Assembly (NCBI GenBank): GCA_002437585.1
Contig: DJQM01000064.1
Location: 11,372-35,371 of the forward strand
Length of the DNA: 24,000 nt
DNA from: Clostridiales bacterium UBA6386
GTDB taxonomy: Bacteria > Bacillota > Clostridia > Oscillospirales > Oscillospiraceae
Direction of reading: 5' to 3'
Both the position numbers and the translations under genes were made by a program. Shown piece by piece: positions 1,837 to 19,190 of this stretch; the stretch's first letter is position 1, and each line of letters opens with the position of its first letter. The notes under the pieces are model-generated. The model was given only the letters and a program-made list of their open reading frames with translations, ran no database searches and was not told the origin of the DNA.

Positions 1837-2604
1837 CTATTCTATTGATTTTTCTTTCAGGATCATGGAACGGATGGCTTCAACAGCGGTTCGGATGGCG
1901 TCGGAGGTGTCCCAGCAGGTATTGGTCAGACCGGTGGCATCCTCTCGCTCCCGGTTGCGGCACAGCAGCAGGACGGTGGCAGCCTTCATACGGCGAATCC
2001 CGGCGACCAGGTACAGGGTGTCGCTTTCCATTTCACTGCCAATGGCACCGGCACGTTTCCAGGCTTTCCACTTGGAACGGAGCTCATCCTCGACAGGCAT
2101 GGTCTCCGGAGCGTGCTGACCATAATAGCTGTCCTTACATTCTACGATGCCGTTGGCATAGGGCAGGCCAAGTCGTTTTGCGGCGGCGTTCAGCTCCATG
2201 ACCAGATCAAAATTGGGCACGGCGGGGTATTCTACCGGTACATACTCCAGACCGGTACCGCTTTTGCGAATGGCGCCGGTGGGAATGATCAGGGTGCCTG
2301 GAACCAGACTGGCATCGATACCGCCGCAGGTGCCTACCCGGATCAGAACCTCCGCACCGCATTTTTTCAGCTCCTCCACACCGATGGCAGTGCTGGGGCC
2401 GCCCATACCGGTGGACATGACAGTGACGGTTTCGCCCTCCAGGGTGCCGTTCCAGGTTGTGTACTCCCGGTAGGTCTGCACATAGCGCGGGTTGTCCAAA
2501 AATGCGGCGATTTTTTTCACACGCCCGGGGTCTCCGGGGAGAATGACATAGCGCCCCAGTTGACCGGGAGCGCATTTGATGTGATGCATCAGTTCTTCTT
2601 GCAT
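1837..2604 (-). CDS. udp: Uridine phosphorylase
   Basis: 255 aa. Motifs matching E. coli Udp by eye: LPGDPGRV, REYTTW, STGMGGPSTAIGVEEL, GSEMES. RBS cctcct (2614-2619, complement AGGAGG) lies 9 nt upstream of the ATG at 2604. Stop TAG at 1837-1839. Confidence 0.9.
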   Translation of the reverse strand: MQEELMHHIKCAPGQLGRYVILPGDPGRVKKIAAFLDNPRYVQTYREYTTWNGTLEGETVTVMSTGMGGPSTAIGVEELKKCGAEVLIRVGTCGGIDASLVPGTLIIPTGAIRKSGTGLEYVPVEYPAVPNFDLVMELNAAAKRLGLPYANGIVECKDSYYGQHAPETMPVEDELRSKWKAWKRAGAIGSEMESDTLYLVAGIRRMKAATVLLLCRNREREDATGLTNTCWDTSDAIRTAVEAIRSMILKEKSIE

Positions 2605-2630
2605 AGTATAATTCCTCCTGAAATGTGATT

Positions 2631-3791
2631 TTATATGATTTGGTCGGCAAAACTGTGCCCGGGTGTTTCAAGTGAAACTCCCAGCAGCTGGGCGACGGTG
2701 GCGGCAATGTCACAGAAACCAGATCGGGTTCCAAGGTTGACCGGCTTTATGGCTTGTCCCAGGGCAATCATAGGCACATATTCCCGGGTATGATCCGTGT
2801 GCTTTTGGAAGCGGGGATCGCACCCGTGATCACCGGTGATGATCACCATGTCCTCTGCACCCAGCTTTTCAAGGAACCCGGGCAGCCAGGCGTCAAATTC
2901 CGCCAGTGCCCGGGCGTAGCCGTCTGGATCCCGGCGATGGCCATAGAGCATATCGAAATCCACCAGATTCACAAAGCACAGTCCGTTAAATTCTTTGTCC
3001 GCATAGGCCATTGTCTTTGCAAGACCATCAGTGTTACCGGTGGTGTATACATATTCGGTCATGCCGATACCGGCGAAGATATCATGGATTTTTCCGACGG
3101 AAATGACCTGCTGACCGGAATCGACGATCCGCTGCAGCAGGGTCGGACGGGGAGGCTTCAGAGAAAAATCGTGGCGGTTTGTGGTTCGATGGAAGGGCCA
3201 CTCCCCGGTGAAGGGCCTGGCAATGACCCGGCCTACGCTGTGTTTCCCGGTGAGAAGCCGGCGGGCAACCCGGCAGTATTCATACAGCAGCTCCGGCGGA
3301 ACGATGGATTCGTGGGCGGCAATCTGAAATACCGAATCGGCAGAGGTATAGACGATCAGGTCTCCGGTTTCCATATGCCGCTTCCCGTAATCCCGGATGA
3401 CATCCGTACCGGAGTAGGGGCAGTTGCACAGGACGCCTCTGCCGGTTTGCTGACGGAAGGGAGCCAGGATCTCCGCAGGGAAGCCCTGGGGATAGGTGGG
3501 CAAGGGATTTTCGGAAACGATCCCTGCGATCTCCCAGTGACCGATGGTAGTGTCTTTTCCTTGGGAGAGCTCCTGAAGGCGGGCGAGAGCCGCTTTTGGG
3601 TGAGGGACTTTTGGCAGATAATCGACTCCGTCCAAATTGCCAAGTCCCCAGGAAATCAGATTTGGCATGTGGAATTCTGGCGAGGTGGTGCAGCTTCGCA
3701 GGGTGTTGGCACCAACGTCTCCGAAGACGGGGGCATCTGGCTCCTCGCCGATTCCACAGGAATCCAGTACGATTAGAAAAATGCGCTTCAT
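2631..3791 (-). CDS. deoB: Phosphopentomutase
   Basis: The ORF track runs to 3809, but the second Met (ATG at 3791) is preceded by AGGAGG (complement of 3798-3803) with a 6-nt spacer. That start gives the canonical DeoB N-terminus MKRIFLIVLDSCGIG. Other motifs: VDFDMLYGHRRD, ITGDHGCDP. Located 26 nt upstream of udp on the same strand, so probably an operon. Confidence 0.92.
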   Translation of the reverse strand: MKRIFLIVLDSCGIGEEPDAPVFGDVGANTLRSCTTSPEFHMPNLISWGLGNLDGVDYLPKVPHPKAALARLQELSQGKDTTIGHWEIAGIVSENPLPTYPQGFPAEILAPFRQQTGRGVLCNCPYSGTDVIRDYGKRHMETGDLIVYTSADSVFQIAAHESIVPPELLYEYCRVARRLLTGKHSVGRVIARPFTGEWPFHRTTNRHDFSLKPPRPTLLQRIVDSGQQVISVGKIHDIFAGIGMTEYVYTTGNTDGLAKTMAYADKEFNGLCFVNLVDFDMLYGHRRDPDGYARALAEFDAWLPGFLEKLGAEDMVIITGDHGCDPRFQKHTDHTREYVPMIALGQAIKPVNLGTRSGFCDIAATVAQLLGVSLETPGHSFADQII

Positions 3792-3848
3792 AGCAAACCT
3801 CCTTTTCAAATTAGTCAGAAATTATATTATGAATTTGCAACCTACTCC

Positions 3849-3877
3849 ATTATAGCTGCAGCTAAAAGATATTACAA
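3849..3877 (-). promoter_or_regulatory. Candidate sigma-70-type promoter for deoB-udp
   Basis: On the minus strand: TTGTAA (3877-3872), a 17-nt spacer, then a perfect TATAAT (3854-3849). About 55 nt upstream of the deoB RBS, in an AT-rich divergent intergenic region. Confidence 0.5.
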
Positions 3878-3942
3878 TAGCAAAATGCAAATTTAGCATT
3901 ATGCACAAAATATGACCGCTCTATTTATAAATAATGATATAT

Positions 3943-3970
3943 TGACATTTTTATTTTGACGTGTATGATA
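3943..3970 (+). promoter_or_regulatory. Candidate promoter for the YczE-like gene (and possibly the downstream ABC operon)
   Basis: TTGACA (3943-3948), then a TG-extended -10 region, gTGtATGATA (3961-3970). The spacer is 15-16 nt depending on the hexamer chosen. Confidence 0.45.
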
Positions 3971-4013
3971 AAGCTATGGCTAAAACATATTATGAAAAAT
4001 AAGGGAATGCGCT

Positions 4014-4667
4014 GTGAACAATTCTAAAAAAATACTACAACTTTTTGAAAACATCCTATGGATCGAACTTGGATTGGCGATATCCTCCGCAGGAACGGCA
4101 CTTTTTTACGCCGCAGATCTGGGATCCGGGGCTATGGCGACATTCTCCGATGGACTGCACCTGCTGCTGGGTATTTCCTATGGAAATGCCAATACATTAT
4201 CCAACATAGTGTTGTTGATAGTTCTGCTTTTCCTTCAGAGGTCTTACATCAACGTGGGTACCGTTCTTTGCGTATTTACCATCGGACCATGGGTAAATTT
4301 GTTTACGCCGGTTTTTCAGGCTGCCGGCCTGGCACAGGCGAATATGTGCCTTCGCCTGCTGGGGGCAGCGGGTGGTACCATCTGCATGGGGGTCGGCTTG
4401 GGTCTGTATGTATCCGTAGGCTGTGGGCTTGGTGCCATGGAGGGGATCGTCATGTATTGCAGGGAACGGTTTCACATTTCCGTGGGGGTATCCAAGATCA
4501 TTCAGGATGTGACACTGGTGCTCCCGGGAATCCTGCTGGGAGCCCGCTGGGGTGTTGGAACGATGATTGCCATGTTCTGCACGGGGCCGGTGCTTCAGTT
4601 TTCCACAGCTTTTTTTAAGAACCGGGTATTTTCTGCCCTTTGCCGTCCCTGGGTCGAACAGGTGTGA
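4014..4667 (+). CDS. Uncharacterised multi-pass membrane protein, YczE/YitT-like
   Basis: 217 aa. GTG start with AAGGGA (4001-4006) 7 nt upstream. Mostly hydrophobic segments (about 6 helices). Resemblance to COG2364/YczE-type proteins is by eye only. Stop TGA at 4665-4667. Confidence 0.6.
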   Translation: MNNSKKILQLFENILWIELGLAISSAGTALFYAADLGSGAMATFSDGLHLLLGISYGNANTLSNIVLLIVLLFLQRSYINVGTVLCVFTIGPWVNLFTPVFQAAGLAQANMCLRLLGAAGGTICMGVGLGLYVSVGCGLGAMEGIVMYCRERFHISVGVSKIIQDVTLVLPGILLGARWGVGTMIAMFCTGPVLQFSTAFFKNRVFSALCRPWVEQV

Positions 4668-4965
4668 GCGAGATTTTATCCTGCTGAGCCAATACCGGCG
4701 GGTAAAATAAAGGACAACACGCGCAATTGTGTCTGCGAGCCTCAGCCGTCTTGTTACCCCATTTCTTCAGTTTGAAAAACGGGAACTATAGCGCAGCCGT
4801 TGCCGGCGAAAGCTGGCTTGCGGGTGCGGCATACCCCTTGCGGGTACATACAGTACTCCGACCTTTTCCGAACTTTGAACTGGGATAAAAATCCTGGCTG
4901 AGTCTTCTTGCCAAATTGTACGCGGTGTTGCCAGAGAACAAATATCATCAGGAGGAACGTAAAAA

Positions 4966-6147
4966 ATGAAAAGCAAAAAGATCGTTGCGCTGCTTCTGAC
5001 TGCGGTTATGCTGCTCTCCATGGCAGCCTGCGGACAGAAGACAACCACCGCCACCGCCACTGCCGCCGCTTCTGCCGACGGCACGCCTTCCGGGGAGACT
5101 GCCGCGGACGGTATCGTAGAAGCCTTTGGCAAGAAGGCCGGCGATATCGGGGTTGTGCTGATCCTGAACACCAATCTGGGCGACCATGCGATCTGCGACC
5201 TGTCTAACGCCGGCCTGCAGGAGGCTGCTGCGATGTATGGCTTCCGAGCGAAGGTCGTTGAACTTGGCGGCGATGTTACACTGCAAGTGCCCACCATGCA
5301 GGAGTATGCGGAGGATCCTGACTGGGATATCATTGTCTGCGGTACTTCCAACTTGAAAGAGGCCGTTCAGCAGGTCGCGCAGGAGCATCCGGATCAGAAG
5401 TTTATCCTTTACGACGCACAGGACGAGAAGGGCCTGCCCAATGTTTTCTCCATGGATCACTGCCAGAATGAGGGTGCCTACCTTGCCGGCGTGGCGGCCG
5501 CTCTGCTGACCACCAGTGACGCACCCTTGGCCAATGGGGAAAAGACCGTCGGTTTTGTAGGCGGCGGCGAGAACACCGCGCTGGATGACTATCTGATCGG
5601 CTATATTCAGGGTGTCCATTCCGTAGATGAGGACATCAACATTTTGGTTTCCTGGATCGGCGACTTCAAGGATACTGCTAAGGGCAAGGAGCTGGCCGTG
5701 GCACAGGCAGGTCAGGGCGCGGACGTAATCTTCTCCGTTGCTGGTATTGCCGGTTTGGGTACTCTGGCAGGCTGCGCCGAGAGCAATATCTACTCCATCG
5801 GCGTGGACTCCGACCAGTACACGGTTCTGCTGGAGACCGATCCGACCACCGCTGCCAACATCTGCACTTCCATGTATAAGAAGGCGGACGTGACTGTCAG
5901 CACACTGATTGCCAGGGCTCTTGACGGCACTCTGGAATGGGGCAGCTACGCCAAGTGGGGTCTGCAGGACGGCGTGGTCGGTCTGGCTAACGATAATGAC
6001 AATTATCAGAGCATCTTCTCTGAGGAGCAGAAGCGTTATCTGGATGGCGTGCAGGCGGACGCTACTGCCGGAAAGCTGGAGATTCTGTCCGCTATCGGCA
6101 TGGACAACGATCAGCTGCAGCAGATTCTGGCTACCGCAACCAAGTAA
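4966..6147 (+). CDS. BMP/PnrA/Med-family lipoprotein, substrate-binding component of a nucleoside-type ABC importer (NupN-like)
   Basis: 393 aa. Lipoprotein signal peptide with lipobox LSMAA-C (Cys22), followed by a T/A-rich linker. BMP-family motifs: TVGFVGGGEN, GADVIFSVAG, YSIGVDSDQY. AGGAGG at 4950-4955. Confidence 0.88.
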   Translation: MKSKKIVALLLTAVMLLSMAACGQKTTTATATAAASADGTPSGETAADGIVEAFGKKAGDIGVVLILNTNLGDHAICDLSNAGLQEAAAMYGFRAKVVELGGDVTLQVPTMQEYAEDPDWDIIVCGTSNLKEAVQQVAQEHPDQKFILYDAQDEKGLPNVFSMDHCQNEGAYLAGVAAALLTTSDAPLANGEKTVGFVGGGENTALDDYLIGYIQGVHSVDEDINILVSWIGDFKDTAKGKELAVAQAGQGADVIFSVAGIAGLGTLAGCAESNIYSIGVDSDQYTVLLETDPTTAANICTSMYKKADVTVSTLIARALDGTLEWGSYAKWGLQDGVVGLANDNDNYQSIFSEEQKRYLDGVQADATAGKLEILSAIGMDNDQLQQILATATK

Positions 6148-6159
6148 GGATAACATGGA

Positions 6160-6191
6160 GGGGAACAGAACGCGTCCACGTTCTGTTCCCC
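6160..6191 (+). other. Intra-operon stem-loop between the binding-protein and ATPase genes
   Basis: Perfect 13-bp stem GGGGAACAGAACG (6160-6172) / CGTTCTGTTCCCC (6179-6191) with a 6-nt loop. No U-tract follows, so it looks more like an mRNA-stabilising or partial-attenuation hairpin than a full terminator. Confidence 0.5.
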
Positions 6192-6226
6192 CAGGATGCC
6201 GAAAAAGGAAATGCAGGAGGATGAAT

Positions 6227-7792
6227 ATGAAAGAGAATATCCTCGTTATGGAGAACATCCGGAAGGTATATTCGAATGGATTTATCGCGAATGAAAATGT
6301 AAATCTTGCTGTCAACGAGGGTGAGATCCATGCGCTGGTCGGTGAAAACGGTGCCGGAAAAAGTACGCTGATGAAGGTGCTTTTCGGCGTAGAAAAGCTG
6401 GATGAGGGCAGAATCCTCCTGAACGGACAGGAAGTCCATATCGACAACCCCAATGTGGCAATCCAATTGGGGATCGGCATGGTTTATCAGCATTTTATGC
6501 TGGTACCCAGTCTGACGGTAACGGAGAACCTTGTCATTGGCATGGAGCCCAGAAAAGGCGGGATCTTCTACGACCAGTCCGCCGCTGAAAAGCTGGTCAG
6601 AGAGGCGGCACAGAAATACAATTTCAAATTGGATCCGACGGCTAAGATCCAGGATCTTCCTGTCGGCCAGAAGCAGAAGGTCGAGATTTTGAAGGTGCTG
6701 ATCCGGGGGGCAAAAATCATCATTCTGGATGAGCCTACGGCTGTCCTGACGCCTCAGGAAACGAGGGAACTGTTTGCCGAGCTGAAGGGATTGAAGAGCC
6801 AGGGCTATACCGTGATCTTTATCTCTCACAAGCTGAACGAGGTGACAGAGCTATGCGACCGGGTGACGGTCATGCGGGCGGGAAAGACCATTGGTGTCCG
6901 CAATATTGCTGATGTGACCGAGGGAGATATCTCCCGGATGATGGTCGGCCGGGACATTGTATTGAAAATAGACAAAAAACGGGCGGTACCGGGAGAGGAA
7001 GTTCTCTCAGTGCGGCATGTTACCAAATATATTCTGAATACGAAAAAAATACTTGACGACGTGAGCTTCCGTGTGCGCCGGGGGGAAATCCTGGGTGTGG
7101 CCGGTGTGGAAGGAAATGGCCAGAAAGAGATCAGCGAGATCATCACTGGCCTAGATCGGGTATTCGACGGAGAGGTTCGCGCGACGCCGGAACTGGTGGA
7201 TGTACGGGAGCAGACAATACGGCAGCTGCGGGAGAAGGGTGTAGCCCATATTTCCGAGGACCGTATGACCTATGGAATCGTGGGCGACGGCAGCATTGAG
7301 GACAATATCATTGCCGACCGTTATTATAAGCCGTCCATGAAGAAGGGGCTGCTGCTGAACCAGAAAAAGATCGATGCTCTGGCGGATGAACTGATCCAGG
7401 AGTATAAGGTCAAGTGCGACAACCGGACGCAGCCGATCCGGATGCTGTCTGGCGGTAATATGCAGAAGGTGGTCACTGCCCGGGAATTTACTGCGGGTGC
7501 GTCCCTGATCATTGCCAATCAGCCGACCCGAGGCATTGATATCGGGGCCAGTGACTTCATTCGCCGCCGCCTGGTGGAACTGCGGACCCAGGGAGCTGGC
7601 GTACTGCTGATCAGCGCGGACTTGAATGAGGTGCTGGAGATCAGCGACAGTCTGATCGTGATGCACAACGGACGGATCGCCGCGTATTTTCCGGATGCGT
7701 CCGCGGTGGGTGAAGATGAATTGGGCGAGTACATGCTTGGGGTAAAAACAATGAGCGAGGAAGAAAAACGGGAGGTGGCGGATTATGACTAA
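6227..7792 (+). CDS. ABC transporter ATP-binding protein with duplicated ATPase domains (NupO/RbsA-like)
   Basis: Start chosen at ATG 6227 (AGGAGG at 6215-6220, 6-nt spacer). The ORF-track start at 5909 would overlap the BMP gene. Walker A motifs GENGAGKST and GVEGNGQKE, Walker B IIILDEPT, signature LSGGNMQKV. Confidence 0.9.
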   Translation: MKENILVMENIRKVYSNGFIANENVNLAVNEGEIHALVGENGAGKSTLMKVLFGVEKLDEGRILLNGQEVHIDNPNVAIQLGIGMVYQHFMLVPSLTVTENLVIGMEPRKGGIFYDQSAAEKLVREAAQKYNFKLDPTAKIQDLPVGQKQKVEILKVLIRGAKIIILDEPTAVLTPQETRELFAELKGLKSQGYTVIFISHKLNEVTELCDRVTVMRAGKTIGVRNIADVTEGDISRMMVGRDIVLKIDKKRAVPGEEVLSVRHVTKYILNTKKILDDVSFRVRRGEILGVAGVEGNGQKEISEIITGLDRVFDGEVRATPELVDVREQTIRQLREKGVAHISEDRMTYGIVGDGSIEDNIIADRYYKPSMKKGLLLNQKKIDALADELIQEYKVKCDNRTQPIRMLSGGNMQKVVTAREFTAGASLIIANQPTRGIDIGASDFIRRRLVELRTQGAGVLLISADLNEVLEISDSLIVMHNGRIAAYFPDASAVGEDELGEYMLGVKTMSEEEKREVADYD

Positions 7793-8897
7793 GGCAAAGA
7801 AAATCCGGACCGCAAAAGAAATTGAGCAGATCTTCAATGTGCTGCGGGTGATTGTGGCAATTGCCATTGCACTGTTGTTTGCTTTTGCTGTAATCCTGCT
7901 GGTCAGCGACGACCCGTTGGACTCCATCTCCAAATTTGTGGTCGGTCCTATGACAACGACTCGGCGCTTTGGCGAGGTCATCAGCAAAATGGTGCCGCTG
8001 CTGTTCACCGGCGCGGCAGTGTGCTTCATCTTCTCTGCGAACCAAACCAATATGGCGGTGGAAGGCGGCTTTACGCTGGGTGCTCTGGGAGCAACCATTG
8101 CCGCCGTTTACCTGTCCGTGGGAAATGCGGTGGTGGACGTGACGGTGGCGTGCCTTCTGGGCGGTCTGTTTGGGCTGATTGCCTGTGCGATCCCCGCTAT
8201 TATGTATGTCAGATTCAATTCCAAGCCCATTGTCAGCTCGTTGATGATGAACTATGTGTGCATGTATGTGGCCATCGGCCTAATCAATCATCCCATGCGG
8301 GACAACAGTGCAGGATTCAATGCTTCGAAGACCTTTGCCGCTACGGCTCAGCTGCCGAAGCTGCTGAAGGGCACGGACATCCACCTTGGATTGATCATCG
8401 GCCTGGTGGTGATCCTGTTCAGCTACATTTATCTCTACCGTGCACAGAACGGATACGAGATTCGGGTGGTAGGCAAAAACAGCGATTTTGCCACCTACTG
8501 TGGCATGCCGGTCAACAGCATCCTGATGAAGTCTCAGCTGATCGGCGGCTTCCTGGCTGGCCTGGGCGGCGCGGTAGAGGTGCTGGGTCTGTATTCCCGG
8601 TTCCAGTATTCTGGCAATACGGGTCTGGGCTTCGACGGCATCATGGTTGGCATTATGGCGGCGTATAACCCGAAGCTGGTTCCGTTGGCGGCGTTTTTCT
8701 ATGCCTATGTGAAGGAGGGCGCGGCGATTCTGGCCCGTTCTACGGACATTCCGGTAGAGCTGGTGAGCATTATTCAGGCGATCATTATCATGCTGGTGGT
8801 AGCCGAAAGATTCCTGTATAAGCAGAAGCACAAGCTTATGGTTCGGGCGGCGGAAAAGCAGCTGGAGCTGCAGCAGACTCAGAAGGAGGAGGGTTAA
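7785..8897 (+). CDS. ABC transporter permease (BMP-family system, NupP-like)
   Basis: 370 aa multi-pass membrane protein. The ATG overlaps the ATPase stop by 8 nt. RBS GGAGGTGG at 7771-7778. Confidence 0.85.
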   Translation: MTKAKKIRTAKEIEQIFNVLRVIVAIAIALLFAFAVILLVSDDPLDSISKFVVGPMTTTRRFGEVISKMVPLLFTGAAVCFIFSANQTNMAVEGGFTLGALGATIAAVYLSVGNAVVDVTVACLLGGLFGLIACAIPAIMYVRFNSKPIVSSLMMNYVCMYVAIGLINHPMRDNSAGFNASKTFAATAQLPKLLKGTDIHLGLIIGLVVILFSYIYLYRAQNGYEIRVVGKNSDFATYCGMPVNSILMKSQLIGGFLAGLGGAVEVLGLYSRFQYSGNTGLGFDGIMVGIMAAYNPKLVPLAAFFYAYVKEGAAILARSTDIPVELVSIIQAIIIMLVVAERFLYKQKHKLMVRAAEKQLELQQTQKEEG

Positions 8898-8899
8898 GG

Positions 8900-9835
8900 A
8901 TGAATGCGGATTTTATCGCAAGTTTTCTCTATTCTGTGATTCGGATCACCACGCCTCTGCTCTATGGCGCGCTGGGAGCACTGATCTGCAAGCAGGGCGG
9001 TGTGCTGCACATTGCCTTTGAGGCCTGTATGCTGTTCGCTGCATTTTTTGGTGTGGTGGCCAGTGCGTTGACGCAGAGCGTTTTCCTTGGTCTGATCGCC
9101 GGTATGGCGGGAGGAGTACTGGTGATGCTCCTGTTCGGCTATTTCACCCTGCAGCTGAACGCAAACCTGGTTTTGACGGGAATCGCCCTCAACACGCTGG
9201 CATCCGGCGGAACGGTGTTCCTGATGTATCTGCTCTGCGGCGAAAAGGGAACCAGCAATGCTCTGCCCAGCCTGGTATTTCCCACTGTGAATATTCCGGT
9301 GGTTAAGGACATCCCTTTCTTAGGTACAGTGCTGTCCGGGCATAACATCCTGACGTATGTGGCGTTTATTATGCCCGTGTTTGTGTATCTGCTGATTTTC
9401 AAGACGCCGCTGGGACTACGTATCCGGTCGGTTGGTGAAAATGAGAATGCTGCCGCAAGCGTAGGCGTCAATGTAGCCAAGACCAAGTATATCACCCTGA
9501 TCATCGGCGGCGCGGTCACATCTCTCGGCGGAATGTTTATGTCCATGGGCTATCTGTCCTGGTTTGCCCGGGATATGATCGCCGGCCGGGGCTTTATGGC
9601 CATTGCAGCCCAGAATCTGGGAAACGCGGCGGTGGTGCCCACGTTCATCACATCTGTCCTGTTCGGATTGGCCAACGCTTTGGCGGTTATGCTCCAGACA
9701 CTGAATCTTCCTGCGGAGATATTCCAGGCAATGCCCTATGTGGTCACGCTGATTGGCCTGGCTGCTTATTCCAGCTCTCAGCGGAAGGGACAGAAGCAAG
9801 AAAAAAAGACTGGAAACAGGCAAAATAAGGGATGA
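8900..9835 (+). CDS. ABC transporter permease (BMP-family system, NupQ-like)
   Basis: 311 aa multi-pass membrane protein. Starts 2 nt after the upstream stop; GAAGGAGGAGGG lies upstream. Confidence 0.85.
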   Translation: MNADFIASFLYSVIRITTPLLYGALGALICKQGGVLHIAFEACMLFAAFFGVVASALTQSVFLGLIAGMAGGVLVMLLFGYFTLQLNANLVLTGIALNTLASGGTVFLMYLLCGEKGTSNALPSLVFPTVNIPVVKDIPFLGTVLSGHNILTYVAFIMPVFVYLLIFKTPLGLRIRSVGENENAAASVGVNVAKTKYITLIIGGAVTSLGGMFMSMGYLSWFARDMIAGRGFMAIAAQNLGNAAVVPTFITSVLFGLANALAVMLQTLNLPAEIFQAMPYVVTLIGLAAYSSSQRKGQKQEKKTGNRQNKG

Positions 9836-9859
9836 AAAAATCTTTTTTTCAGGTATAAT
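9832..9859 (+). promoter_or_regulatory. Possible internal promoter for the gntR-GRE operon
   Basis: Perfect TATAAT at 9854-9859, 25 nt upstream of the gntR ATG, but only a weak -35 (ATGAAA at 9832-9837). Read-through from the ABC operon is equally possible. Confidence 0.3.
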
Positions 9860-9883
9860 GAAAGCTGAAAGAGAGGGAGACCT

Positions 9884-10576
9884 ATGTCTTATTCATCGAA
9901 TGCATCACAGCGTGTCTTAAACTACATTACGGACAATATCAGAACCGGGCATTGGGCGGCGGGCAGCAAGATCGAAACGGAGGATACAATCAGCGAAAAG
10001 CTGGGCGTAAGCCGGATCGCAGTCAGACAGGCCATTGAAAAGCTCAGTACGCTGGCGGTTCTGACGAAGGTACAGGGATCCGGAACTTATGTAAACGGCT
10101 TTGAAGAGTGCACACTGGGAGGGATGGTGTATTACCCGCCTACCCTGCGGTCACTGCGCACAGTGCTGGAATTCCGGAGGATGTTCGATTCCTGCAACGC
10201 GGAGCTTTTTATTCAGAATGCGACGCGGCAGCAGAAGGAGGAACTGTACCAGAATTTCCGGGACATGGTTCAGACAAAGGATGATCGGGAACGCTTTGAA
10301 ATTTATGACAACGCCTTCCATGAAATGATTGCCAGAGGAACCAACAATACCTTGATCTGCCAGATATCCGATACGCTGACAGAGCTTTTGATCCATCATC
10401 AGGCACTGCAGTACGATTTGGTCGGGCCGGAGCAGGCCATTAAATGGCATGGGCGTATCATCGAGGCCATCCAGGATGGGGATGGTGAGCTGGCGCGGCT
10501 ATATACCAGGGTACATATTGATAATGCCATCAAAAGATTGGCATCGGCTGACAGCAAAACGGAGGAAACACCATGA
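9884..10576 (+). CDS. GntR-family transcriptional regulator, FadR/FCD subfamily
   Basis: 230 aa. N-terminal winged HTH (EDTISEKLGVSRIAVRQAIEKLSTLAVLTKVQGSGTYV). C-terminal FCD-type helices with a conserved His pattern (YDNAFHEMI, WHGRIIEAIQDGDGELA). Confidence 0.88.
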   Translation: MSYSSNASQRVLNYITDNIRTGHWAAGSKIETEDTISEKLGVSRIAVRQAIEKLSTLAVLTKVQGSGTYVNGFEECTLGGMVYYPPTLRSLRTVLEFRRMFDSCNAELFIQNATRQQKEELYQNFRDMVQTKDDRERFEIYDNAFHEMIARGTNNTLICQISDTLTELLIHHQALQYDLVGPEQAIKWHGRIIEAIQDGDGELARLYTRVHIDNAIKRLASADSKTEETP

Positions 10577-12072
10577 GCAGTGCTGTGTATGATATTATTA
10601 CTTCCGATCATCTGAATTATCATCAAAAGCTGAACGCTTTGTGCCATGAGGCGGAGAACACACTGGAGGTACTGCCGCTACCGGCACATTTCCACAAATA
10701 CTTCGATCGCGGAGCGATCTGTGATATGAACGAGGGAAACGCTCCCTATCGCCCGCGCTATGTGATGGTGGATTTTGAGCGGTTTGTGAAGCAGGGCAGT
10801 CGATTTCTGAAGCTGGATCCTCCCCGGAATCTGGATGAGCTGCTGTGGGCACTGGAGATCCTGTACTGCTACATTCCGTCGATTACCACAAAGCCGGTGT
10901 ATCTGGGCAACCTGGACAAGCTGATCGATCCGTTTTTGGACGGGGTGACCGATGAAGAGGCCGTCCCCAAGCTGGAACGCTTTTTGGGCTATATCAACCG
11001 GGTCATCGCCAACGCTTACAGCCACGCGAACATCGGGCCGGAGGCGACCAGAGCCGGTTGGCTGCTGCTGATGATGGAGGAAAAGCTTCAGCTGGATACA
11101 CCGAACTTGACTCTGAAATATGACGCAGACATTACGCCGGATGACTTTGCGGAAGCGGCGATCCGCTGTTCGCTGAAGTGCGGCAATCCCGCGATCTGCA
11201 ATCACAAAGCCCATAAGGATACCTACAGCTTTGACTATGGGATTTCTTCCTGCTATAATATTCTGCCGCTGCGAGGCGGGGCATATACGCTATCCCGACT
11301 GGTGCTGCCAAGGCTTGCAAAAATGGCCGACGGCGTGGACATGTTTCTGGAGGAGTTGCTGCCGGATGCCTGTAAGACGCTGGGGGAGTACATGAATGCC
11401 CGGGTCAGCTTTCTGGTGGAGAAATCCAATTTCTTCCAGCGGGATTTTCTGGCGGAAGAGGGTCTGATTGAGCGGGAGCGCTTTGTGGGGATGTACGGCG
11501 TGGCGGGTCTGTGCGATTGCGTCGATTTGCTTCTGGCAGATCGGGGCCTGAAATATGGCAGAGATCCGGAGGCGGATGATCTGGCGGATCGGATCATGAG
11601 GATCATTCAGAACTTCGTGGCTCGCTTCGAAGCTAACTATTCGGAGATTGGCCATGGACATTTCCTGCTGCACGCCCAGGCAGGGCTGGCCACGGATGTG
11701 GGAGTGACTTCGGGCGTGCGGATCACGGTGGGAGACGAGCCGGAAAACCTGCTGAACCACCTGCGCCACAGTGCGCGGTTCCATCGATTCTTTCCCACGG
11801 GCTGCAGTGACATTTTTCCCTTTGACGCCACAGCGGAGCGGAATCCCGGTGGTTTGCTGGATATTGTCAAGGGTGCGTTCTCTATCGGGGACAAATACTG
11901 CGCGTTTTACGGTGCGGATGGAGATATGGTGCGGATCACCGGCTATCTCGTCAAGCGCAGCGACCTGCAAAAGTATGAGAACGGAGACATTGCTCTTCAG
12001 GACAATGTGATCAACGGCAGCAGCAACTACAGGCTGAACCGGCTGAAGGACAGGAAGGTTCGCCATGTCTGA
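10573..12072 (+). CDS. yjjI: YjjI-family short glycyl-radical enzyme (substrate unknown)
   Basis: 499 aa. C-terminal glycyl-radical fingerprint DMVRITGYLV, with Gly457 encoded by ggc at 11941-11943. Size and overall sequence fit the E. coli YjjI type rather than the 750-850 aa PFL-type GREs. The ATGA overlap with the gntR stop (10573-10576) and the dedicated activase immediately downstream support the call. Confidence 0.8.
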   Translation: MSSAVYDIITSDHLNYHQKLNALCHEAENTLEVLPLPAHFHKYFDRGAICDMNEGNAPYRPRYVMVDFERFVKQGSRFLKLDPPRNLDELLWALEILYCYIPSITTKPVYLGNLDKLIDPFLDGVTDEEAVPKLERFLGYINRVIANAYSHANIGPEATRAGWLLLMMEEKLQLDTPNLTLKYDADITPDDFAEAAIRCSLKCGNPAICNHKAHKDTYSFDYGISSCYNILPLRGGAYTLSRLVLPRLAKMADGVDMFLEELLPDACKTLGEYMNARVSFLVEKSNFFQRDFLAEEGLIERERFVGMYGVAGLCDCVDLLLADRGLKYGRDPEADDLADRIMRIIQNFVARFEANYSEIGHGHFLLHAQAGLATDVGVTSGVRITVGDEPENLLNHLRHSARFHRFFPTGCSDIFPFDATAERNPGGLLDIVKGAFSIGDKYCAFYGADGDMVRITGYLVKRSDLQKYENGDIALQDNVINGSSNYRLNRLKDRKVRHV

Positions 12073-12913
12073 GCAGTTGACCGCGCCGATCAACAGGATA
12101 CTGCCCTATAGTGTTGTAGACGGACCGGGCAACCGGGTGGCGATATTCTTTCAGCGGTGCAATATCCACTGCGCCTATTGCCACAATCCGGAAACGCAGA
12201 ATCTGTGCCAGAACTGCGGCACCTGCGTGGAAGAATGCCCCGGAAAGGCACTGACCATGGACAACGGCAGGGTTCGCTGGGCGGTGGGGAAATGCCTGGA
12301 GTGTGACCGGTGCATCCGGATCTGCCCGAATCATGCTTCCCCCAAAGTGACGGAGATGACACCAGAGCAGGTATTTGAGAAGGTTTGCGAGAGCCTTCCT
12401 TTTATCCGTGGAATCACCGTATCCGGTGGGGAGTGCAGCCTGTATCCGGATTTTCTCGAGAAATTGTTCACTTTGACAAGAAAAAAGCATCTGACGGCAC
12501 TGATGGATTGCAACGGAACCATAGATTTGAGCTGGTATTCCGGGCTTATGGCACTGTGCGACGGTGTTATGCTGGACGTGAAAAGCTGGGATCCGGAGGC
12601 CTTCTTCACACTGACCGGAGGAGACGGCAAAAATGTAAAAAAGAATCTCCTCTGGCTGTCCCAACAGGGAAAGCTGGAGGAGGTTCGCATCGTCTACGCA
12701 CCCGGCTGCGTGGACGCGGAGCACTGCATTCTTGGCATCGCGGAGACACTGGGACCGAAACAGACGGAAAAGGTGCTGCTGAAGCTGATCCGTTTTCGTC
12801 CCTTTGGGGTAAAAGGACCGCTTTCCGATTGGCCGCCGCCCTCCATGGAAGCGATGGCCGGACTGGAGGCTCTTGCGACGCGGGTCGGATTTCGGCGGAT
12901 CCTGATTCTGTAG
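12065..12913 (+). CDS. yjjW: YjjW-family glycyl-radical enzyme activase (radical SAM)
   Basis: 282 aa. Radical-SAM CNIHCAYC (C32/C36/C39, nt 12158-12181). Two ferredoxin-type cluster motifs, CQNCGTCVEECP and CLECDRCIRICP. SAM-binding motif VSGGEC. The ATGTCTGA overlap with the yjjI stop (12065-12072) indicates translational coupling. Confidence 0.85.
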   Translation: MSEQLTAPINRILPYSVVDGPGNRVAIFFQRCNIHCAYCHNPETQNLCQNCGTCVEECPGKALTMDNGRVRWAVGKCLECDRCIRICPNHASPKVTEMTPEQVFEKVCESLPFIRGITVSGGECSLYPDFLEKLFTLTRKKHLTALMDCNGTIDLSWYSGLMALCDGVMLDVKSWDPEAFFTLTGGDGKNVKKNLLWLSQQGKLEEVRIVYAPGCVDAEHCILGIAETLGPKQTEKVLLKLIRFRPFGVKGPLSDWPPPSMEAMAGLEALATRVGFRRILIL

Positions 12914-12941
12914 CGGTCAGGCGCATGAAAGGAAAACGATC

Positions 12942-13736
12942 ATGATACTTTCTCACTGCAATTTTTTCTCTAAGACCCTTTTGAATCATGTGGATGTGGA
13001 TGTGCTGATCCCATCCGTTCCGGAAAATGACTGCATTGGCATGACACTGGAAGAAATTTACGCACCGGTCAAGCCATATCCCGTCCTGTACCTCCTTCAC
13101 GGTGCGCTGGACGACCATACCGCGTGGCTGCGGCACACGAATATCGAAGCTCTGGCGGAGAAGGCCGGTGTCGCGGTGGTCATGCCATCGGGGCAGAACG
13201 GATTCTATGTGAACGCACGTTACGGACAGAATTATTTCGACTTCATCGCCAAGGAGCTGCCGGCTTTTATCGAGCGGATATTCCCGGTCAGCACCTGCCG
13301 GGAGGAACGATTTATTGCCGGCCCGTCCATGGGCGGCTACGGCGCGACCCATACGGCACTGTCCTGCCCGGAGTGCTACAGAGCGTTCGCGGATCTGTCC
13401 GGCGCGGTGGATCCGGTGACGCTGGAACCGAGAATGCAAGCCATGGGCTTTGGCTTTTTCCGATATGATTTGATTTTTGACGGCACCCGGAATATGCGGC
13501 CTGATGATGATTTGTACGCACTGGCGGCCTCGTTAAAGTCGGCGGAGATCAAGCCGGAAGCGTATGTGTATTGCGGACTGGAGGATACTGCCAACTATGA
13601 TATGAACTGCCGGTTGCGGGATACGTTGGTGGAAAACAATTTTTCCGTTTCCTTCCGGGATGGGCATGGGCGGCATGACTGGGTCTATTGGAACAGCTGC
13701 ATCGCGGATTTTCTTGCGCATATTGCGAAGAAATAG
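12942..13736 (+). CDS. Alpha/beta-hydrolase esterase (putative esterase/esterase D/EstA-like family)
   Basis: 264 aa. YPVLYLLHG oxyanion region and nucleophile elbow GPSMGG. C-terminal HDW region typical of the esterase-D-like family. Starts 29 nt after yjjW with an AAAGGAAAA RBS. Confidence 0.8.
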   Translation: MILSHCNFFSKTLLNHVDVDVLIPSVPENDCIGMTLEEIYAPVKPYPVLYLLHGALDDHTAWLRHTNIEALAEKAGVAVVMPSGQNGFYVNARYGQNYFDFIAKELPAFIERIFPVSTCREERFIAGPSMGGYGATHTALSCPECYRAFADLSGAVDPVTLEPRMQAMGFGFFRYDLIFDGTRNMRPDDDLYALAASLKSAEIKPEAYVYCGLEDTANYDMNCRLRDTLVENNFSVSFRDGHGRHDWVYWNSCIADFLAHIAKK

Positions 13737-13801
13737 GGCAGCACCGCACAATTCGGCCAGAAATCTCAGCCGGGATTTTTGCTGAATTGTGCGGTGCTGC
13801 C
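13737..13801. terminator. Long extended hairpin between the convergent esterase and ugd genes (possible bidirectional terminator)
   Basis: Perfect 18-bp inverted repeat GGCAGCACCGCACAATTC (13737-13754) / GAATTGTGCGGTGCTGCC (13784-13801). The 29-nt interior folds further: AGAAATC (13759-13765) pairs with GATTTTT (13774-13780). Starts directly after the esterase stop. There is no clean U-tract. Confidence 0.45.
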
Positions 13802-13832
13802 TTAATTATCGTGTGTCATCGAATAACGCGTA

Positions 13833-13908: not shown

Positions 13909-15375
13909 TCAGTCCCGCTTGAAGATATCCCGGGTATAGACCTTCTCCTTCACGTCGTCCAGGCAGCTGTCGTACCGGTTGGCCAGGATACAGCCGGAGA
14001 GCCGCTTGAACTTGGCTAGGTCGTTGACCACCCGGGAGCCGAAGAAGGTCTCCCCGTCCGGAAGGGTGGGCTCGTAGATGATGACGGTCGCCCCCTTGGC
14101 CTTGATCCGCTTCATGACCCCCTGGATGGCGGACTGGCGGAAATTGTCAGAATTTGCCTTCATGGTCAGCCGGTACACGCCTACCACGGTCTCCTTCTCC
14201 TTTTTGGCACTCCAGGCATCGTTGGCTTCGTACCCGCCGGCAATCTCCAGCACCTGTTCGGCGATGAAATCCTTCCGGGTGCGGTTTGACTCCACAATGG
14301 CACTCATCATGTTCTGGGGCACATTTTCAAAGTTGGCAAGCAATTGCTTGGTGTCCTTGGGCAGGCAGTAGCCGCCGTAGCCGAAGGAGGGGTTATTATA
14401 GTGGCTGCCGATACGAGGATCCAGGCATACGCCGTCGATGATGTCCTTGGTACACAGCCCCTTGGCCAGGGCGTAGGTGTCCAGCTCGTTGAAATAGCTC
14501 ACCCGCAGAGCAAGATAGGTGTTGGCAAACAGCTTCACCGCCTCGGCCTCGGTAAAGCCCATGAACAGGGTGGGGATATTCTCCTTGATGGCTCCCTGCT
14601 GCAAAAGAGAGGCGAAGACTTCCGCCTCTTTCCGGGTGCCCGCATCGCAGGAGACAATGATCCGGCTGGGGTACAGATTATCGTACAGAGCCTTGGATTC
14701 CCGGAGAAACTCCGGGCTGAACAGGATCCGGTCGGTGTGGTACTTCTTCCGGACGGAGACGGTGTAGCCCACGGGAATGGTGGACTTGATGACCATAACG
14801 GCCTTGGGATTCACTTTGCGTACCAGCTCAATGACCGCTTCCACCGCGGAGGTATCGAAGTAATTTTTCTTGCTGTCGTAGTTGGTGGGGGCGGCGATGA
14901 CCACGAAGTCCGCGTCCCGGTAGGCACTCTCGCCGTCCAGGGTGGCGGTCAGGTCAAGCTCCTTTTCCGCCAGGTACTTTTCGATGTACTCGTCCTGAAT
15001 GGGAGACTTGCGCCGGTTGATGAGTTCCACCTTCTCCGGGAGAATGTCCACGGCGGTGACGTGGTTGTGCTGGGCGAGCAGGGTGGCGATAGACAGACCC
15101 ACATAGCCCGTTCCGGCCACGGCCACGCGGTATCGCCTTGCGGGGGCGGCCTTTGGCCTGGGCTCTTCCTGATAGAGATCCGGTATTTCAAATTCCAGCA
15201 CCTGCGCCAGAGCCTCCAGCTGATCGAGGGAGGGCTTGTAGGTTTCGTTTTCCAGTCTGCCCAGCATGGAGCGGTTGATGCCGGTGAGCTCCGACAGCTG
15301 AGCCTGGGTCAGGTGCTTTTCCTTGCGCCGGGCGCGGACGGTTTCCGCCAGAAGAGCGGGGGAAAGCTTTTTCAT
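13909..15375 (-). CDS. ugd: Fusion protein: N-terminal XRE/Cro-C1 HTH domain + UDP-glucose 6-dehydrogenase
   Basis: 488 aa. Residues ~1-70 form an HTH ([39 protein letters not shown]), followed by the linker [12 protein letters not shown]. The rest is a full Ugd resembling streptococcal HasB/Cap3A: [63 protein letters not shown]. There is no Met at the enzyme-module start (YRVAVAG), so the enzyme cannot be read as a separate gene. Confidence 0.88.
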
Positions 15376-15405
15376 GTGTTACCTCCTGAAAATGATATTA
15401 TAAGC

Positions 15406-15433
15406 GGAATTAAAAGCGAAAATGGAATTAAAA
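15406..15433 (-). promoter_or_regulatory. Direct repeat pair in the ugd leader (candidate operator)
   Basis: GGAATTAAAA occurs at 15406-15415 and again at 15424-15433 (18-nt register). The pair lies between the predicted ugd promoter and the RBS. Confidence 0.35.
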
Positions 15434-15441
15434 CTTCGCAT

Positions 15442-15470
15442 ATCTTAGCATATATCTGGAACAGATGCAA
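15442..15470 (-). promoter_or_regulatory. Candidate promoter for the HTH-ugd gene
   Basis: On the minus strand: TTGCAT (15470-15465), a 17-nt spacer, then TGcTAAGAT (extended -10; hexamer 15447-15442). Confidence 0.5.
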
Positions 15471-15655
15471 TAGGATCAAATAAATTCTGTTTATAGCGGC
15501 ATTTTATGCAGACAACCCGGAAAACGCAGGAAACCGCCTGAAGGCCAGCCTGGAATCTGGCACAAATGCCGGAAAAAGTTATGGGTAAAGATGCACATTT
15601 TTCCGGGGAAAAGCAGGGGCTATCAAATATTTTTTACTAATATTTCAGTTAGGTG

Positions 15656-15683
15656 TTGATTTTCTGAAAAGATATGGTATGAT
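15656..15683 (+). promoter_or_regulatory. Candidate promoter for the SGNH-cpsC-cpsD operon
   Basis: TTGATT (15656-15661), a 16-nt spacer, then TGgTATGAT (extended -10; TATGAT at 15678-15683). Confidence 0.5.
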
Positions 15684-15764
15684 AACACAGTATGAGACGG
15701 TAGGCATGGTGTGCCCTTTGAAAAATTACACATCATTCCGAAAAACGACGGAGAGTATAGACAT

Positions 15765-17048: not shown

Positions 17049-17074
17049 CACCCGGGAAAGAAAGAGGATTTACT

Positions 17075-17881
17075 ATGCAGTATACGGAAGAAGATACCAT
17101 TGACCTTCTGGAGCTTGCCAAGGCGATCTGGAAGAACATCCTGATCATCGCGCTGGTCGCCGTGCTGCTTGGCTCCGCGGCCTTCGGCGTTTCCGCCTTC
17201 CTGATCGAGCCTACCTATCAGGCCATGGCCTCCATGTACGTCAACAACAGCTCCTTCAGCCTGGGGCAGACCAGCTTCTCCATTTCCACCTCCGAGCTGT
17301 CCGCCTCCAATTCTCTGGTCAGCGTGTACATCTACATTCTGGAATCCAGAACCACCATGGAGGACGTGATCAAGGAGGCAGGGCTGAGCTACACTCCCAC
17401 GGAGCTGGGAGAAATGGTGGAGGCCGAGGGCGTGAGCAACACCGGCGCCTTTGAGATCACCGTCACCAGCACCGACCCTGCCGAGGCGGAGCTGATCGCC
17501 AATACGATTGCCAAGCTACTGCCTGACCGGATCGCGGAGATCGTGGACGGCAGCTCCGTGCGCATCGTGGACTACGCCATCATTCCCGCCCACCGTTCCG
17601 GGCCGAGTCTTGTGAAGAACACCGCCATGGGCATTCTGGCAGGCGGCTTCCTGGCGGCGGCAGTGGTGGTGGTGAACTTCCTGTTCAACGATAAGTCCAG
17701 GGAAATGATCCGGTGCGCCGACGACCTGCGGGAGATGTACCCGGATGTGCAGGTTCTGAGCATGATCCCGGATATGCGCCAGTCCGAGAAGAAGAACGGC
17801 TACTATTCCGACTATTACTACGCGCCTGCGAAGAGCAAGCAGAAGGGAGGCGCAGACAATGGCAGAAAGCAAGGTGCTTAA
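17075..17881 (+). CDS. cpsC: Wzz/CpsC/CapA-type chain-length determinant, transmembrane modulator of the BY-kinase
   Basis: 268 aa. Wzz-type N-terminus (IDLLELAKAIWKNILIIALVAVLLGS...EPTYQAMASMYV). Second TM helix near the C-terminus (GILAGGFLAAAVVVVNFLF). Cytoplasmic tail with the Tyr cluster GYYSDYYYAP. Confidence 0.85.
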   Translation: MQYTEEDTIDLLELAKAIWKNILIIALVAVLLGSAAFGVSAFLIEPTYQAMASMYVNNSSFSLGQTSFSISTSELSASNSLVSVYIYILESRTTMEDVIKEAGLSYTPTELGEMVEAEGVSNTGAFEITVTSTDPAEAELIANTIAKLLPDRIAEIVDGSSVRIVDYAIIPAHRSGPSLVKNTAMGILAGGFLAAAVVVVNFLFNDKSREMIRCADDLREMYPDVQVLSMIPDMRQSEKKNGYYSDYYYAPAKSKQKGGADNGRKQGA

Positions 17882-18626: not shown

Positions 18627-18684
18627 TTGGCATTCCCTGCCTTCGGGCAGTCGAATACAAATCTCAGGGAAAGGAGGAATTCAT

Positions 18685-19143: not shown

Positions 19144-19160
19144 TTTCCTTTCTGTGGCGG

Positions 19161-19190
19161 CGAGCCAGTCCTTCGGGACTGGCTCGTTTG
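19161..19190 (+). terminator. Intrinsic terminator after the secreted-protein gene
   Basis: CGAGCCAGTCC (19161-19171), loop TTCG, GGACTGGCTCG (19176-19186), followed by TTTG. Confidence 0.7.

Follow-up and report, generated by a model that had tools for sequence, protein, structure and literature searches.

YjjI-YjjW, a glycyl radical enzyme pair linked to nucleoside uptake and catabolism genes in a Clostridiales locus and across further lineages

Introduction

Why does a glycyl radical enzyme stand among genes for nucleoside uptake and salvage, and on which compound does it act? The question is raised by a stretch of 24,000 nucleotides from Clostridiales bacterium UBA6386 (assembly GCA_002437585.1, contig DJQM01000064.1, positions 11,372 to 35,371 of the forward strand), here called the window, in which yjjI, the gene for a glycyl radical enzyme, and yjjW, the gene for its activating enzyme, follow an ATP-binding cassette (ABC) importer of the Bmp type. 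Glycyl radical enzymes carry out chemically difficult anaerobic reactions, and several of them shape the metabolism of gut microbes. To our knowledge, few glycyl radical enzymes of Escherichia coli still lack an assigned reaction, and YjjI is among them.

We propose that this is a nucleoside uptake and catabolism locus with yjjI-yjjW wired into it, and that YjjI probably acts on an imported nucleoside or on the pentose or pentose phosphate derived from it. The pair is placed again and again in nucleoside operons and the enzyme has a reductase-like core; together, these two observations reduce the candidate substrates to a short list.

Results

Gene content of the locus

The block consists of two genes on the minus strand and nine on the plus strand, as follows.

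1837-2604, minus strand: udp-like nucleoside phosphorylase (PF01048, PNP_UDP_1, 9.4e-35)
2631-3809, minus strand: deoB phosphopentomutase (NF003766, 493.6 bits against a cut-off of 256, and TIGR01696, 448.5 bits, both above their cut-offs)
4014-4667, plus strand: YczE/YitT-like (DUF6198) membrane protein (PF02588, 3e-7; NF052291 YczE, 77.9 bits, below the cut-off)
4966-6147, plus strand: Bmp/PnrA-type substrate-binding lipoprotein (PF02608, 2.2e-46; lipobox MAAC in the translation)
6227-7792, plus strand: ABC ATPase with two ATP-binding domains (two PF00005, ABC_tran, stretches)
7785-8897, plus strand: ABC permease 1 (PF02653, 1.3e-25)
8900-9835, plus strand: ABC permease 2 (PF02653, 1.4e-29)
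9884-10576, plus strand: GntR/FCD-family regulator (PF00392, PF07729)
10573-12072, plus strand: yjjI glycyl radical enzyme (TIGR04040, 592.5 bits against 498.3; PF11230, 4e-191)
12065-12913, plus strand: yjjW activating enzyme (TIGR04041, 361.8 bits against 250.2; PF04055 and several Fer4 families)
12942-13736, plus strand: PF00756 carboxylesterase (1.1e-19)

The gene identities are well established, clearly so for deoB, while udp is a probable uridine phosphorylase. Every gene that the initial annotation had named (udp, deoB, the Bmp ABC set, gntR, yjjI, yjjW and the esterase) was found at the coordinates it gave with Pfam and NCBIfam models, and its list lacked the YczE/YitT-like gene, which is divergent from deoB. 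YjjI covers PF11230 over its full length (636 bits, model positions 1-485 of 485). YjjW is a radical SAM protein with a ferredoxin-like insert, thus a large activase of the pyruvate formate-lyase (PFL) type and not NrdG. Judged by its model score, its glycine and cysteine motifs and the adjacent activase, which belongs to the dedicated YjjW family, the yjjI product is a YjjI-family glycyl radical enzyme. Its nearest relatives are found in uncultured Clostridiales, Pygmaiobacter and Faecousia genomes, which identifies the source as a Firmicute of the Oscillospiraceae type.

The importer has the expected composition, with a Bmp lipoprotein, a fused double ATPase and two BPD_transp_2 permeases in one operon. 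The closest solved structure to the lipoprotein is Treponema pallidum TmpC/PnrA (2fqw, E 5.5e-32). Judging from context only, since cdd, udp, pnp, deoB, deoC and nucleoside hydrolase genes share operons with such importers in related loci, the window importer would carry nucleosides. Among NCBIfam models, the Udp-like protein scores highest with uridine phosphorylase TIGR01718, where its 260.5 bits fall slightly short of the cut-off of 280.3, and the gene clusters at 40% identity with 25 other Udp-like genes that adjoin yjjI elsewhere. The true start of deoB is likely the ATG at 3791, downstream of an AAGGAGG site, and the start of the double ATPase was set at the ATG at 6227 from the preceding ribosome-binding site AGGAGG. 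The closest solved structures to the esterase are 4rgy and the tributyrin esterase 2uz0.

Recurrence of the nucleoside linkage

Neighbourhoods of yjjI were compared in 102 loci: one K-12 reference, four close genomes, 17 loci looked up by exact protein, whose neighbours were annotated with Pfam, and 80 metagenome contigs found with an alignment of 26 YjjI sequences, their YjjI proteins being 43-83% identical to that of the window. Loci are cited below by their numbers in this sample (L001 and so on). A lineage is a YjjI group at 70% identity and was scored only where the flank was at least 8 kb. The strict list of nucleoside genes held Bmp, PNP/UDP, DeoB, DeoC, Pdp, Cdd, Add, Udk, nucleoside hydrolase, NupC and the NupG-type permease; ribokinase was left out of these counts because the label 'rbsK' was contaminated by LacI-PfkB fusions. 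Neighbouring open reading frames were clustered without prior labels, and the final maps were made by tblastn of Pfam-checked seeds. Pfam confirmed the cluster representatives for Bmp, PNP/UDP, Crp, PfkB, DeoC, cytidine deaminase, uridine kinase, nucleoside hydrolase and adenosine deaminase, and the DeoB, YczE and pyrimidine phosphorylase clusters were identified through their window or E. coli members.

A strict-list gene lies within 10 kb of the pair in 13 of the 18 scored lineages and within 5 kb in 11, and Bmp is present in ten. Four more distant lineages from the look-up set added one weakly positive case, L100, where Bmp-ABC genes are 6-10 kb away, and three negative ones (Ferrimonas, an archaeon and a high-GC bacterium), giving 14 of 22 against an estimated chance rate of roughly 8%. 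In E. coli K-12, genes of the strict-list types lie at roughly 18 loci in 4.6 Mb. The binomial probability of 14 of 22 is about 1e-10 at a background of 8% and about 2e-5 at a deliberately high 21%. This is the neighbourhood enrichment check that the initial annotation had suggested, run in limited form. The adjacency of the glycyl radical enzyme to nucleoside genes across phyla, first claimed from two genomes, is thus established far beyond them.

The linkage is also close. With one representative taken per 80% cluster, there are 2.3 nucleoside genes per 10 kb at distances of up to 2 kb from yjjI-yjjW, about 1.0 per 10 kb from 2 to 8 kb, and 0.12 from 8 to 10 kb. Leaving aside yjjI, yjjW (downstream of yjjI in 74 of the clustered loci) and the ABC genes, the largest clusters near the pair are Bmp (44 loci), PNP/UDP phosphorylases (30), Crp-family regulators (23), PfkB kinases (16), DeoC (15), cytidine deaminase (12), DeoB (11), YczE (10), uridine kinase (9), inosine-uridine nucleoside hydrolase (9), pyrimidine nucleoside phosphorylase (5) and adenosine deaminase (3). 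The set that recurs near YjjI therefore comprises four classes of transporter together with Udp/DeoD/PunA, DeoB, DeoC, Cdd, Add, Udk and nucleoside hydrolase, and ribokinase recurs too, although it was not scored.

The phosphorylases that adjoin yjjI are Udp-like in 26 cases, DeoD-like in 10 and PunA-like in 5, and with cdd, udk and pdp also among the neighbours, the linked enzymes have a mild pyrimidine bias. Such a bias might point to the free base, or to a reduced derivative, as the YjjI substrate in an oxygen-independent step of pyrimidine or purine breakdown. In favour of such a step, the Rut route by which E. coli degrades uracil needs oxygen. We nevertheless regard a base substrate as quite improbable: dihydropyrimidinase, dihydropyrimidine dehydrogenase, xanthine dehydrogenase and other base-degrading genes do not recur among the neighbours, aromatic bases have no sp3 C-H for a thiyl radical, and class III reductases bind the ribose, not the base, at the cysteine loop. 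Signature genes of queuosine, pseudouridine and methylthioadenosine salvage were likewise not found recurring in the neighbourhoods, and these pathways were set aside.

Two further observations were made in this sample. A YczE/DUF6198 gene stands beside udp and a nucleoside transporter in five YjjI lineages (the window gene at 4014-4667, L008, L010, L013 and L075) and is often divergent from the transporter operon. L099 (JGI contig Ga0314843_0000058) carries a YjjI-YjjW pair in an archaeal context, among genes for eIF-1A, eIF-2 beta, NMD3, RIO1 and RadA, with no nucleoside genes nearby; its YjjI is 36% identical to the window protein.

Gene orders around yjjI-yjjW

In the clade of the window, udp, yczE, bmp-ABC, gntR, the esterase and yjjI-yjjW are kept in several orders. 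Because the same gene set is retained in different orders in related genomes, the block represents more than a chance adjacency. The order ABC-gntR-yjjI-yjjW(-esterase) is found in the window, L002, L004, L005 and L018, while L019 has ABC-esterase-gntR-yjjI-yjjW; deoB is not at its window position in L002, L003 and L005. In L003, a Pygmaiobacter metagenome-assembled genome, ABC-gntR is followed by a GC-rich palindrome or hairpin with a T run (9079-9211) and then by crp-yjjI-yjjW. The lineage of the window appears to have lost the crp segment seen in L003, which would have joined yjjI directly to gntR.

Hydrogenoanaerobacterium (L008) separates the two parts: crp-yjjI-yjjW comes first, udp is on the opposite strand, yczE-bmp-ABC-gntR follows with gntR as the last gene of the ABC operon and unlinked from yjjI, and the esterase is convergent. 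The PF00756 esterase accompanies the Bmp-ABC-gntR set in L002, L004, L005, L008 and L019. The initial annotation had counted gntR and the esterase as parts of the glycyl radical enzyme module, which does not agree with L008, where both sit with the ABC genes and yjjI-yjjW is a separate unit. From this layout and the orders in the clade, we therefore assign gntR and the esterase to the transporter module, and yjjI-yjjW is a mobile unit of two or three genes.

Genes of the lipase or esterase type recur near yjjI in other lineages as well (L001, 7412-8485, yjjU; L017, 14756-15757; L028, 4839-5702; L099, 9081-9923). Among them, patatin-like genes are found in E. coli, Edwardsiella and the unrelated metagenomic lineage L028, where the gene abuts yjjI, and in the archaeal locus L099 an alpha/beta hydrolase gene lies 78 nt upstream of yjjI.

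A further arrangement occurs in a clade of 30 loci whose YjjI is 44-48% identical to the window protein. Here, the order is bmp-yjjI-yjjW-ATPase-permease-permease, with the glycyl radical enzyme inside the importer operon, gaps mostly under 100 nt and single-strand runs of up to 14 genes, such as crp-add-punA-udp-bmp-yjjI-yjjW-ABC-yczE-deoC-cdd-deoB in L075. This embedded architecture is confined to a single 70% clade, though it spans at least seven 80% clusters. Other clades have yjjI-yjjW-bmp-ABC followed by cdd, pdp, udp, deoD and deoC; yjjI-yjjW-nucleoside hydrolase-bmp-ABC-ribokinase-udp; or lacI-ECF transporter-udp, in some cases deoB, and crp-yjjI-yjjW. In Neobacillus, a nucleoside permease gene (TIGR00889, 610.8 bits; cut-off 446.1) comes after crp-yjjI-yjjW, one gammaproteobacterial locus has nupC-yjjI-yjjW (TIGR00804, 472 against 442), and Edwardsiella has deoCABD, yjjI-yjjW and nupC in this order. 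For E. coli K-12, the genome record bears out the divergence that the initial annotation had stated: yjjW-yjjI is encoded on the minus strand, and 257 bp separate it from deoCABD on the plus strand.

One E. coli protein of 574 aa (P0124, on a 2.9-kb contig) carries both YjjI and DeoC Pfam domains; since yjjI and deoC are divergent in E. coli K-12, it is probably an artefact of assembly or annotation. Neobacillus sp. WH10 (L011) also carries a genuine nrdD-nrdG pair at 5051-7404, about 2 kb upstream of crp-yjjI-yjjW-nucleoside permease.

In four loci with full flanks (L011, L016, L037 and L070), the transporter is the sole linked nucleoside gene. These transporter-only loci lead us to rank an imported nucleoside first among the substrate candidates; a pentose phosphate would come second and a base derivative third.

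A reductase-like enzyme that is unlikely to be a reductase

The YjjI family is compact: 1.8 billion representatives yielded about 20 full-length clusters at 50% identity. In 30 sequences with 36-75% identity to the window YjjI, C227 (in the SSCYN loop), R454 and G457 (VRITGY; R-[IV]-[TS]-G-Y in the family) do not vary, and at least 90% of the sequences keep Y458. The other invariant residues are E54, R62, Y63, D115, H151, N178, R242, E296, H367, Q369 and R383.

A sequence search of the PDB with YjjI gave no match. The AlphaFold model is confident, with a pLDDT of 93.8 and a pTM of 0.93. When it was compared with the PDB by Foldseek, class III ribonucleotide reductases from Prevotella copri, Streptococcus thermophilus, phage T4 and Thermotoga maritima took all of the first 25 places (E as low as 6e-16, TM-score at most 0.77), and PFL-like enzymes come next at E of about 1e-12. 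When aligned by hhalign with the Neobacillus NrdD encoded beside one of the YjjI loci (probability 96.8%), Cys227 pairs with the cysteine of the NrdD motif MGC*R, and the glycine motif RITGYLV is identical. The fold and the glycine-cysteine pair are thus established.

A cryptic ribonucleotide or ribonucleoside reductase was considered, and we regard it as unlikely. The second cysteine, the asparagine and the zinc ribbon of NrdD are not matched in YjjI, which argues against a hidden reductase, and host genomes keep NrdD; both E. coli and Neobacillus carry it besides YjjI. Considering that the core is reductase-like but apparently without the reducing residues, a redox-neutral elimination, rearrangement or lyase step on the ribosyl part of the substrate seems more likely than a reduction.

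The same residues bear on a second possible substrate, the pentose phosphate pool. YjjI might, for example, make a 2-deoxy or deoxy-keto compound that DeoC or a related enzyme can cleave, starting from ribose 5-phosphate or ribose 1-phosphate. If true, ribonucleosides could be broken down anaerobically by this route to glyceraldehyde 3-phosphate and a C2 unit. DeoB, DeoC and ribokinase are indeed common neighbours, deoC in 15 loci and deoB in 11; a true ribokinase gene is directly upstream in L071 (TIGR02152, 333.9 bits against 299.65); in E. coli, yjjI and deoC are divergent neighbours; the phosphorylase/DeoB and the hydrolase/ribokinase contexts have a single intermediate in common, ribose 5-phosphate; and the invariant R62, R242, R383, H151 and H367 are candidate residues that could hold a phosphate. 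However, the four transporter-only loci have no enzyme nearby that would make a pentose phosphate, and a net 2'-reduction needs a reductant site, for which the second cysteine and the asparagine of NrdD are unmatched. We therefore judge action on the pentose phosphate pool unlikely, though it deserves some weight.

Proposed role of YjjI

The initial annotation had suggested a nucleoside, a nucleobase or a pentose-phosphate-derived metabolite as the substrate. The linkage in 14 of 22 lineages supports this suggestion, and it is from this linkage that we infer the substrate class. In the scheme that we favour, nucleosides would enter by the Bmp ABC importer, or in other lineages by ECF, NupC or NupG-type carriers, and conventional enzymes would deaminate them, remove the base and process the pentose. 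The pair yjjI-yjjW lies directly behind the gntR gene of the importer locus, which holds the Bmp ABC set, GntR, a Udp-like phosphorylase and phosphopentomutase, and from this position the enzyme may be made together with the importer or from the same control region. Under anoxia, the radical SAM activase YjjW would generate a radical at Gly457 of YjjI; from there the radical would move to Cys227, which would take a hydrogen atom from a ribosyl C-H of the substrate.

As to the reaction itself, we suggest tentatively that a reductase-derived YjjI may carry out an undescribed radical reaction on free ribonucleosides or their pentose. The candidates are a 2'-dehydration, a radical cleavage of the glycosidic bond, and a deoxygenation at the nucleoside level that feeds DeoC. 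If true, a new YjjI reaction would extend nucleoside catabolism, usually held to be complete, by a radical step; it would show how a reductase scaffold was put to use in catabolism; and it would define, for gut Firmicutes and enterobacteria, a branch of the pathway that works anaerobically.

Several points weigh against assigning YjjI to nucleosides. The support comes from genomic context and a structure model. The operons already hold complete conventional nucleoside pathways, and no missing step is evident for YjjI to fill. The chance rate of about 8%, that of a random 21.5-kb window, was estimated from E. coli K-12 figures and is not a matched control; the 70%-identity lineages are not fully independent; and the metagenome set, being the 80 loci most similar to the window protein, is biased to Firmicutes-like sequences. 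That the reductase residues seem to be absent was read from a profile alignment whose N-terminal part is weak. A 2011 co-expression study of E. coli grouped yjjI with nitrate-respiration genes and proposed a role in nitrogen metabolism (PMC3228777). Finally, about one third of the lineages have no nucleoside gene within 10 kb of yjjI-yjjW; besides the three distant negatives named above, these are Proteus and several metagenomic clades, and their neighbours (patatin, MatE, carbamoyl-phosphate synthase, isochorismatase, GGDEF, topoisomerase) are mixed, with no common theme.

These unlinked lineages and the nitrate-respiration grouping would suit another explanation, namely, that yjjI stands beside these genes only through shared regulation or because the site was convenient for insertion, and that the YjjI substrate is unrelated to nucleosides, for example, a non-nucleoside ligand of Bmp or an ester or lipid product. 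The esterase and lipase-type neighbours (patatin in E. coli, Edwardsiella and L028, the archaeal alpha/beta hydrolase and the PF00756 protein of the window clade) point the same way, and proteins of the Bmp family also bind riboflavin and other ligands (4iil, 6pi5). On the other side, yjjI is accompanied, in many gene orders, by transporters from four unrelated families with nucleoside annotation and by at least ten nucleoside enzymes, a recurrence that is hard to explain without a functional link, and the density of nucleoside genes drops sharply away from the pair. A substrate unrelated to nucleosides is thus very improbable, and an imported nucleoside or its pentose or pentose phosphate remains our preferred reading.

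Regulation and earlier work

In E. coli, yjjI is among the operons directly activated by FNR (PMC3688515), and the yjjI/deoC spacer contains a CRP site (PMC4287617). In Yersinia intermedia, yjjI is up 4.3-fold anaerobically (PMC3792023). Anaerobic expression in these two organisms fits a glycyl radical enzyme. A Crp-family regulator gene is immediately upstream of yjjI in 10 of the 18 lineages; the Crp-family regulators beside yjjI contain no FNR-type cysteine cluster, and we therefore do not claim oxygen sensing for them.

A functional network of E. coli published in 2009 placed YjjI, together with YeiM and YjjJ, in a module of nucleotide transport and deoxyribonucleoside degradation (PMC2672614). 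In the literature searched, we found no substrate assignment for YjjI, and a review of glycyl radical enzymes from June 2026 mentions neither YjjI nor nucleosides. The nucleoside link was thus already hinted at in 2009, and what is new relative to the literature searched is its breadth, the embedding in operons and the reductase-like architecture of an enzyme that appears not to be a reductase.

Junctions and repeats in the window

Three elements at the junctions of the block were noted.

9832-9859, plus strand: promoter-like site, ATGAAA-16-TATAAT, 10/12 matches
13731-13807: inverted repeat with 32-nt arms, 84% complementary, between convergent genes, closing the gntR-yjjI-yjjW-esterase unit
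6160-6191, plus strand: perfect 13-bp hairpin without a T run, between the bmp stop and the ATPase start, read from the sequence

The gap of 48 nt between the ABC genes and gntR, from which the initial annotation had argued for one continuous unit, is real (9836-9883). Its shortness does not imply co-transcription, since it holds a promoter-like site whose TATAAT-type -10 box is retained in the same gap before gntR in L002, L003, L004, L005 and L018. From this conserved box, gntR-yjjI-yjjW-esterase could start from its own putative promoter. No terminator-like site was found in the gap, and read-through from the ABC genes into gntR is possible. Downstream, gntR and yjjI overlap by 4 nt and yjjI and yjjW by 8 nt, and the esterase gene starts after a spacing of 28 nt from yjjW. 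Both arms of the closing inverted repeat are exact motif matches.

The hairpin at 6160-6191 lies at the bmp/ATPase junction, the same junction that holds yjjI-yjjW in another YjjI clade. The spacer between yczE and bmp (4665-4965) is 301 nt long in the window and 65-70 nt in relatives, and 4887-4932 within it matches 13737-13780 of the terminal inverted repeat with 83% identity in inverted orientation. Relatives carry GC-rich repeated spacers of other kinds, such as an element of 64-69 nt with 91-94% identity that occurs three times in L002. An Rfam search of the window, including the 301-nt leader before bmp, found no known RNA. The palindrome ATGCAAATTTAGCAT in the deoB-yczE spacer was considered as a shared operator and rejected; it occurs once in the window and thus gives no evidence for such a role.

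Flanking genes

Polysaccharide biosynthesis genes flank the nucleoside/glycyl radical enzyme block on both sides. On the left (18-1625) there is a CapD-like gene; on the right (13909-21264) there are genes for a UDP-glucose dehydrogenase-like protein with an N-terminal helix-turn-helix (488 aa, minus strand), Wzz, a tyrosine-kinase-type ATPase, a CpsB phosphatase and LytR. The block may have inserted itself into genes for capsule formation. A 445-aa open reading frame in the polysaccharide region (15711-17048) has no Pfam match.

Discussion

Comparison with known systems

The closest known system is the YjjI/YjjW pair of E. coli K-12 (b4380/b4379), which belongs to the same families (TIGR04040/TIGR04041, PF11230); its YjjI is 39% identical to the window protein over the full length, and the genes overlap as in the window. 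The surroundings differ. The E. coli pair adjoins deoCABD, from which it is divergent, is activated by FNR and has no adjacent transporter, whereas the window pair adjoins udp/deoB and an importer, comes after a GntR regulator and the Bmp ABC genes, has the esterase downstream and lacks the upstream Crp-family gene present in 10 of 18 lineages. The importer itself has the layout of the Bmp/PnrA importers T. pallidum PnrA/TmpC and Bacillus subtilis NupNOPQ, with a lipoprotein, a fused double ATPase and two permeases. The importer genes of the window locus and its relatives are interleaved with the glycyl radical enzyme pair or stand directly before it, and we know of no characterised Bmp/PnrA importer with such a pair among its genes.

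The class III ribonucleotide reductase NrdD is the nearest fold to YjjI, with an equivalent glycine and an equivalent cysteine at the tip of the finger loop, and both enzymes have ties to anaerobic life and to the metabolism of nucleosides or nucleotides. YjjI is shorter, at about 500 aa, and scores 19.3 bits with the Pfam NRDD model, under the gathering threshold of 26.2. According to the profile alignment, the C-terminal CxxC...CxxC zinc ribbon of NrdD is a gap in YjjI, the asparagine of the NrdD GRGN motif is replaced by a small residue (A/S/G), and the methionine two residues before the cysteine by I/V/A; the second-face cysteines of NrdD correspond to the invariant P-R62-Y63, an assignment of low confidence because it lies N-terminally. 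The activase also differs, being PFL-type with a ferredoxin insert for YjjI and NrdG for NrdD.

The PFL-like eliminases and lyases (CutC, the glycerol and propanediol dehydratases, HypD, PflD/YbiW) are the other point of reference. YjjI is about 300 residues shorter and reaches 21.2 bits with PF02901, against a threshold of 24.3; its cysteine loop reads S-C-Y-N, in contrast to the C-x-E of the eliminases, and neither the C-x-E nor the C-C motif of PFL-like enzymes is found in it. They nevertheless share with YjjI the ten-stranded barrel, the glycine-cysteine relay and an activase with auxiliary Fe-S clusters, and provide a model for the redox-neutral radical elimination that YjjI may carry out.

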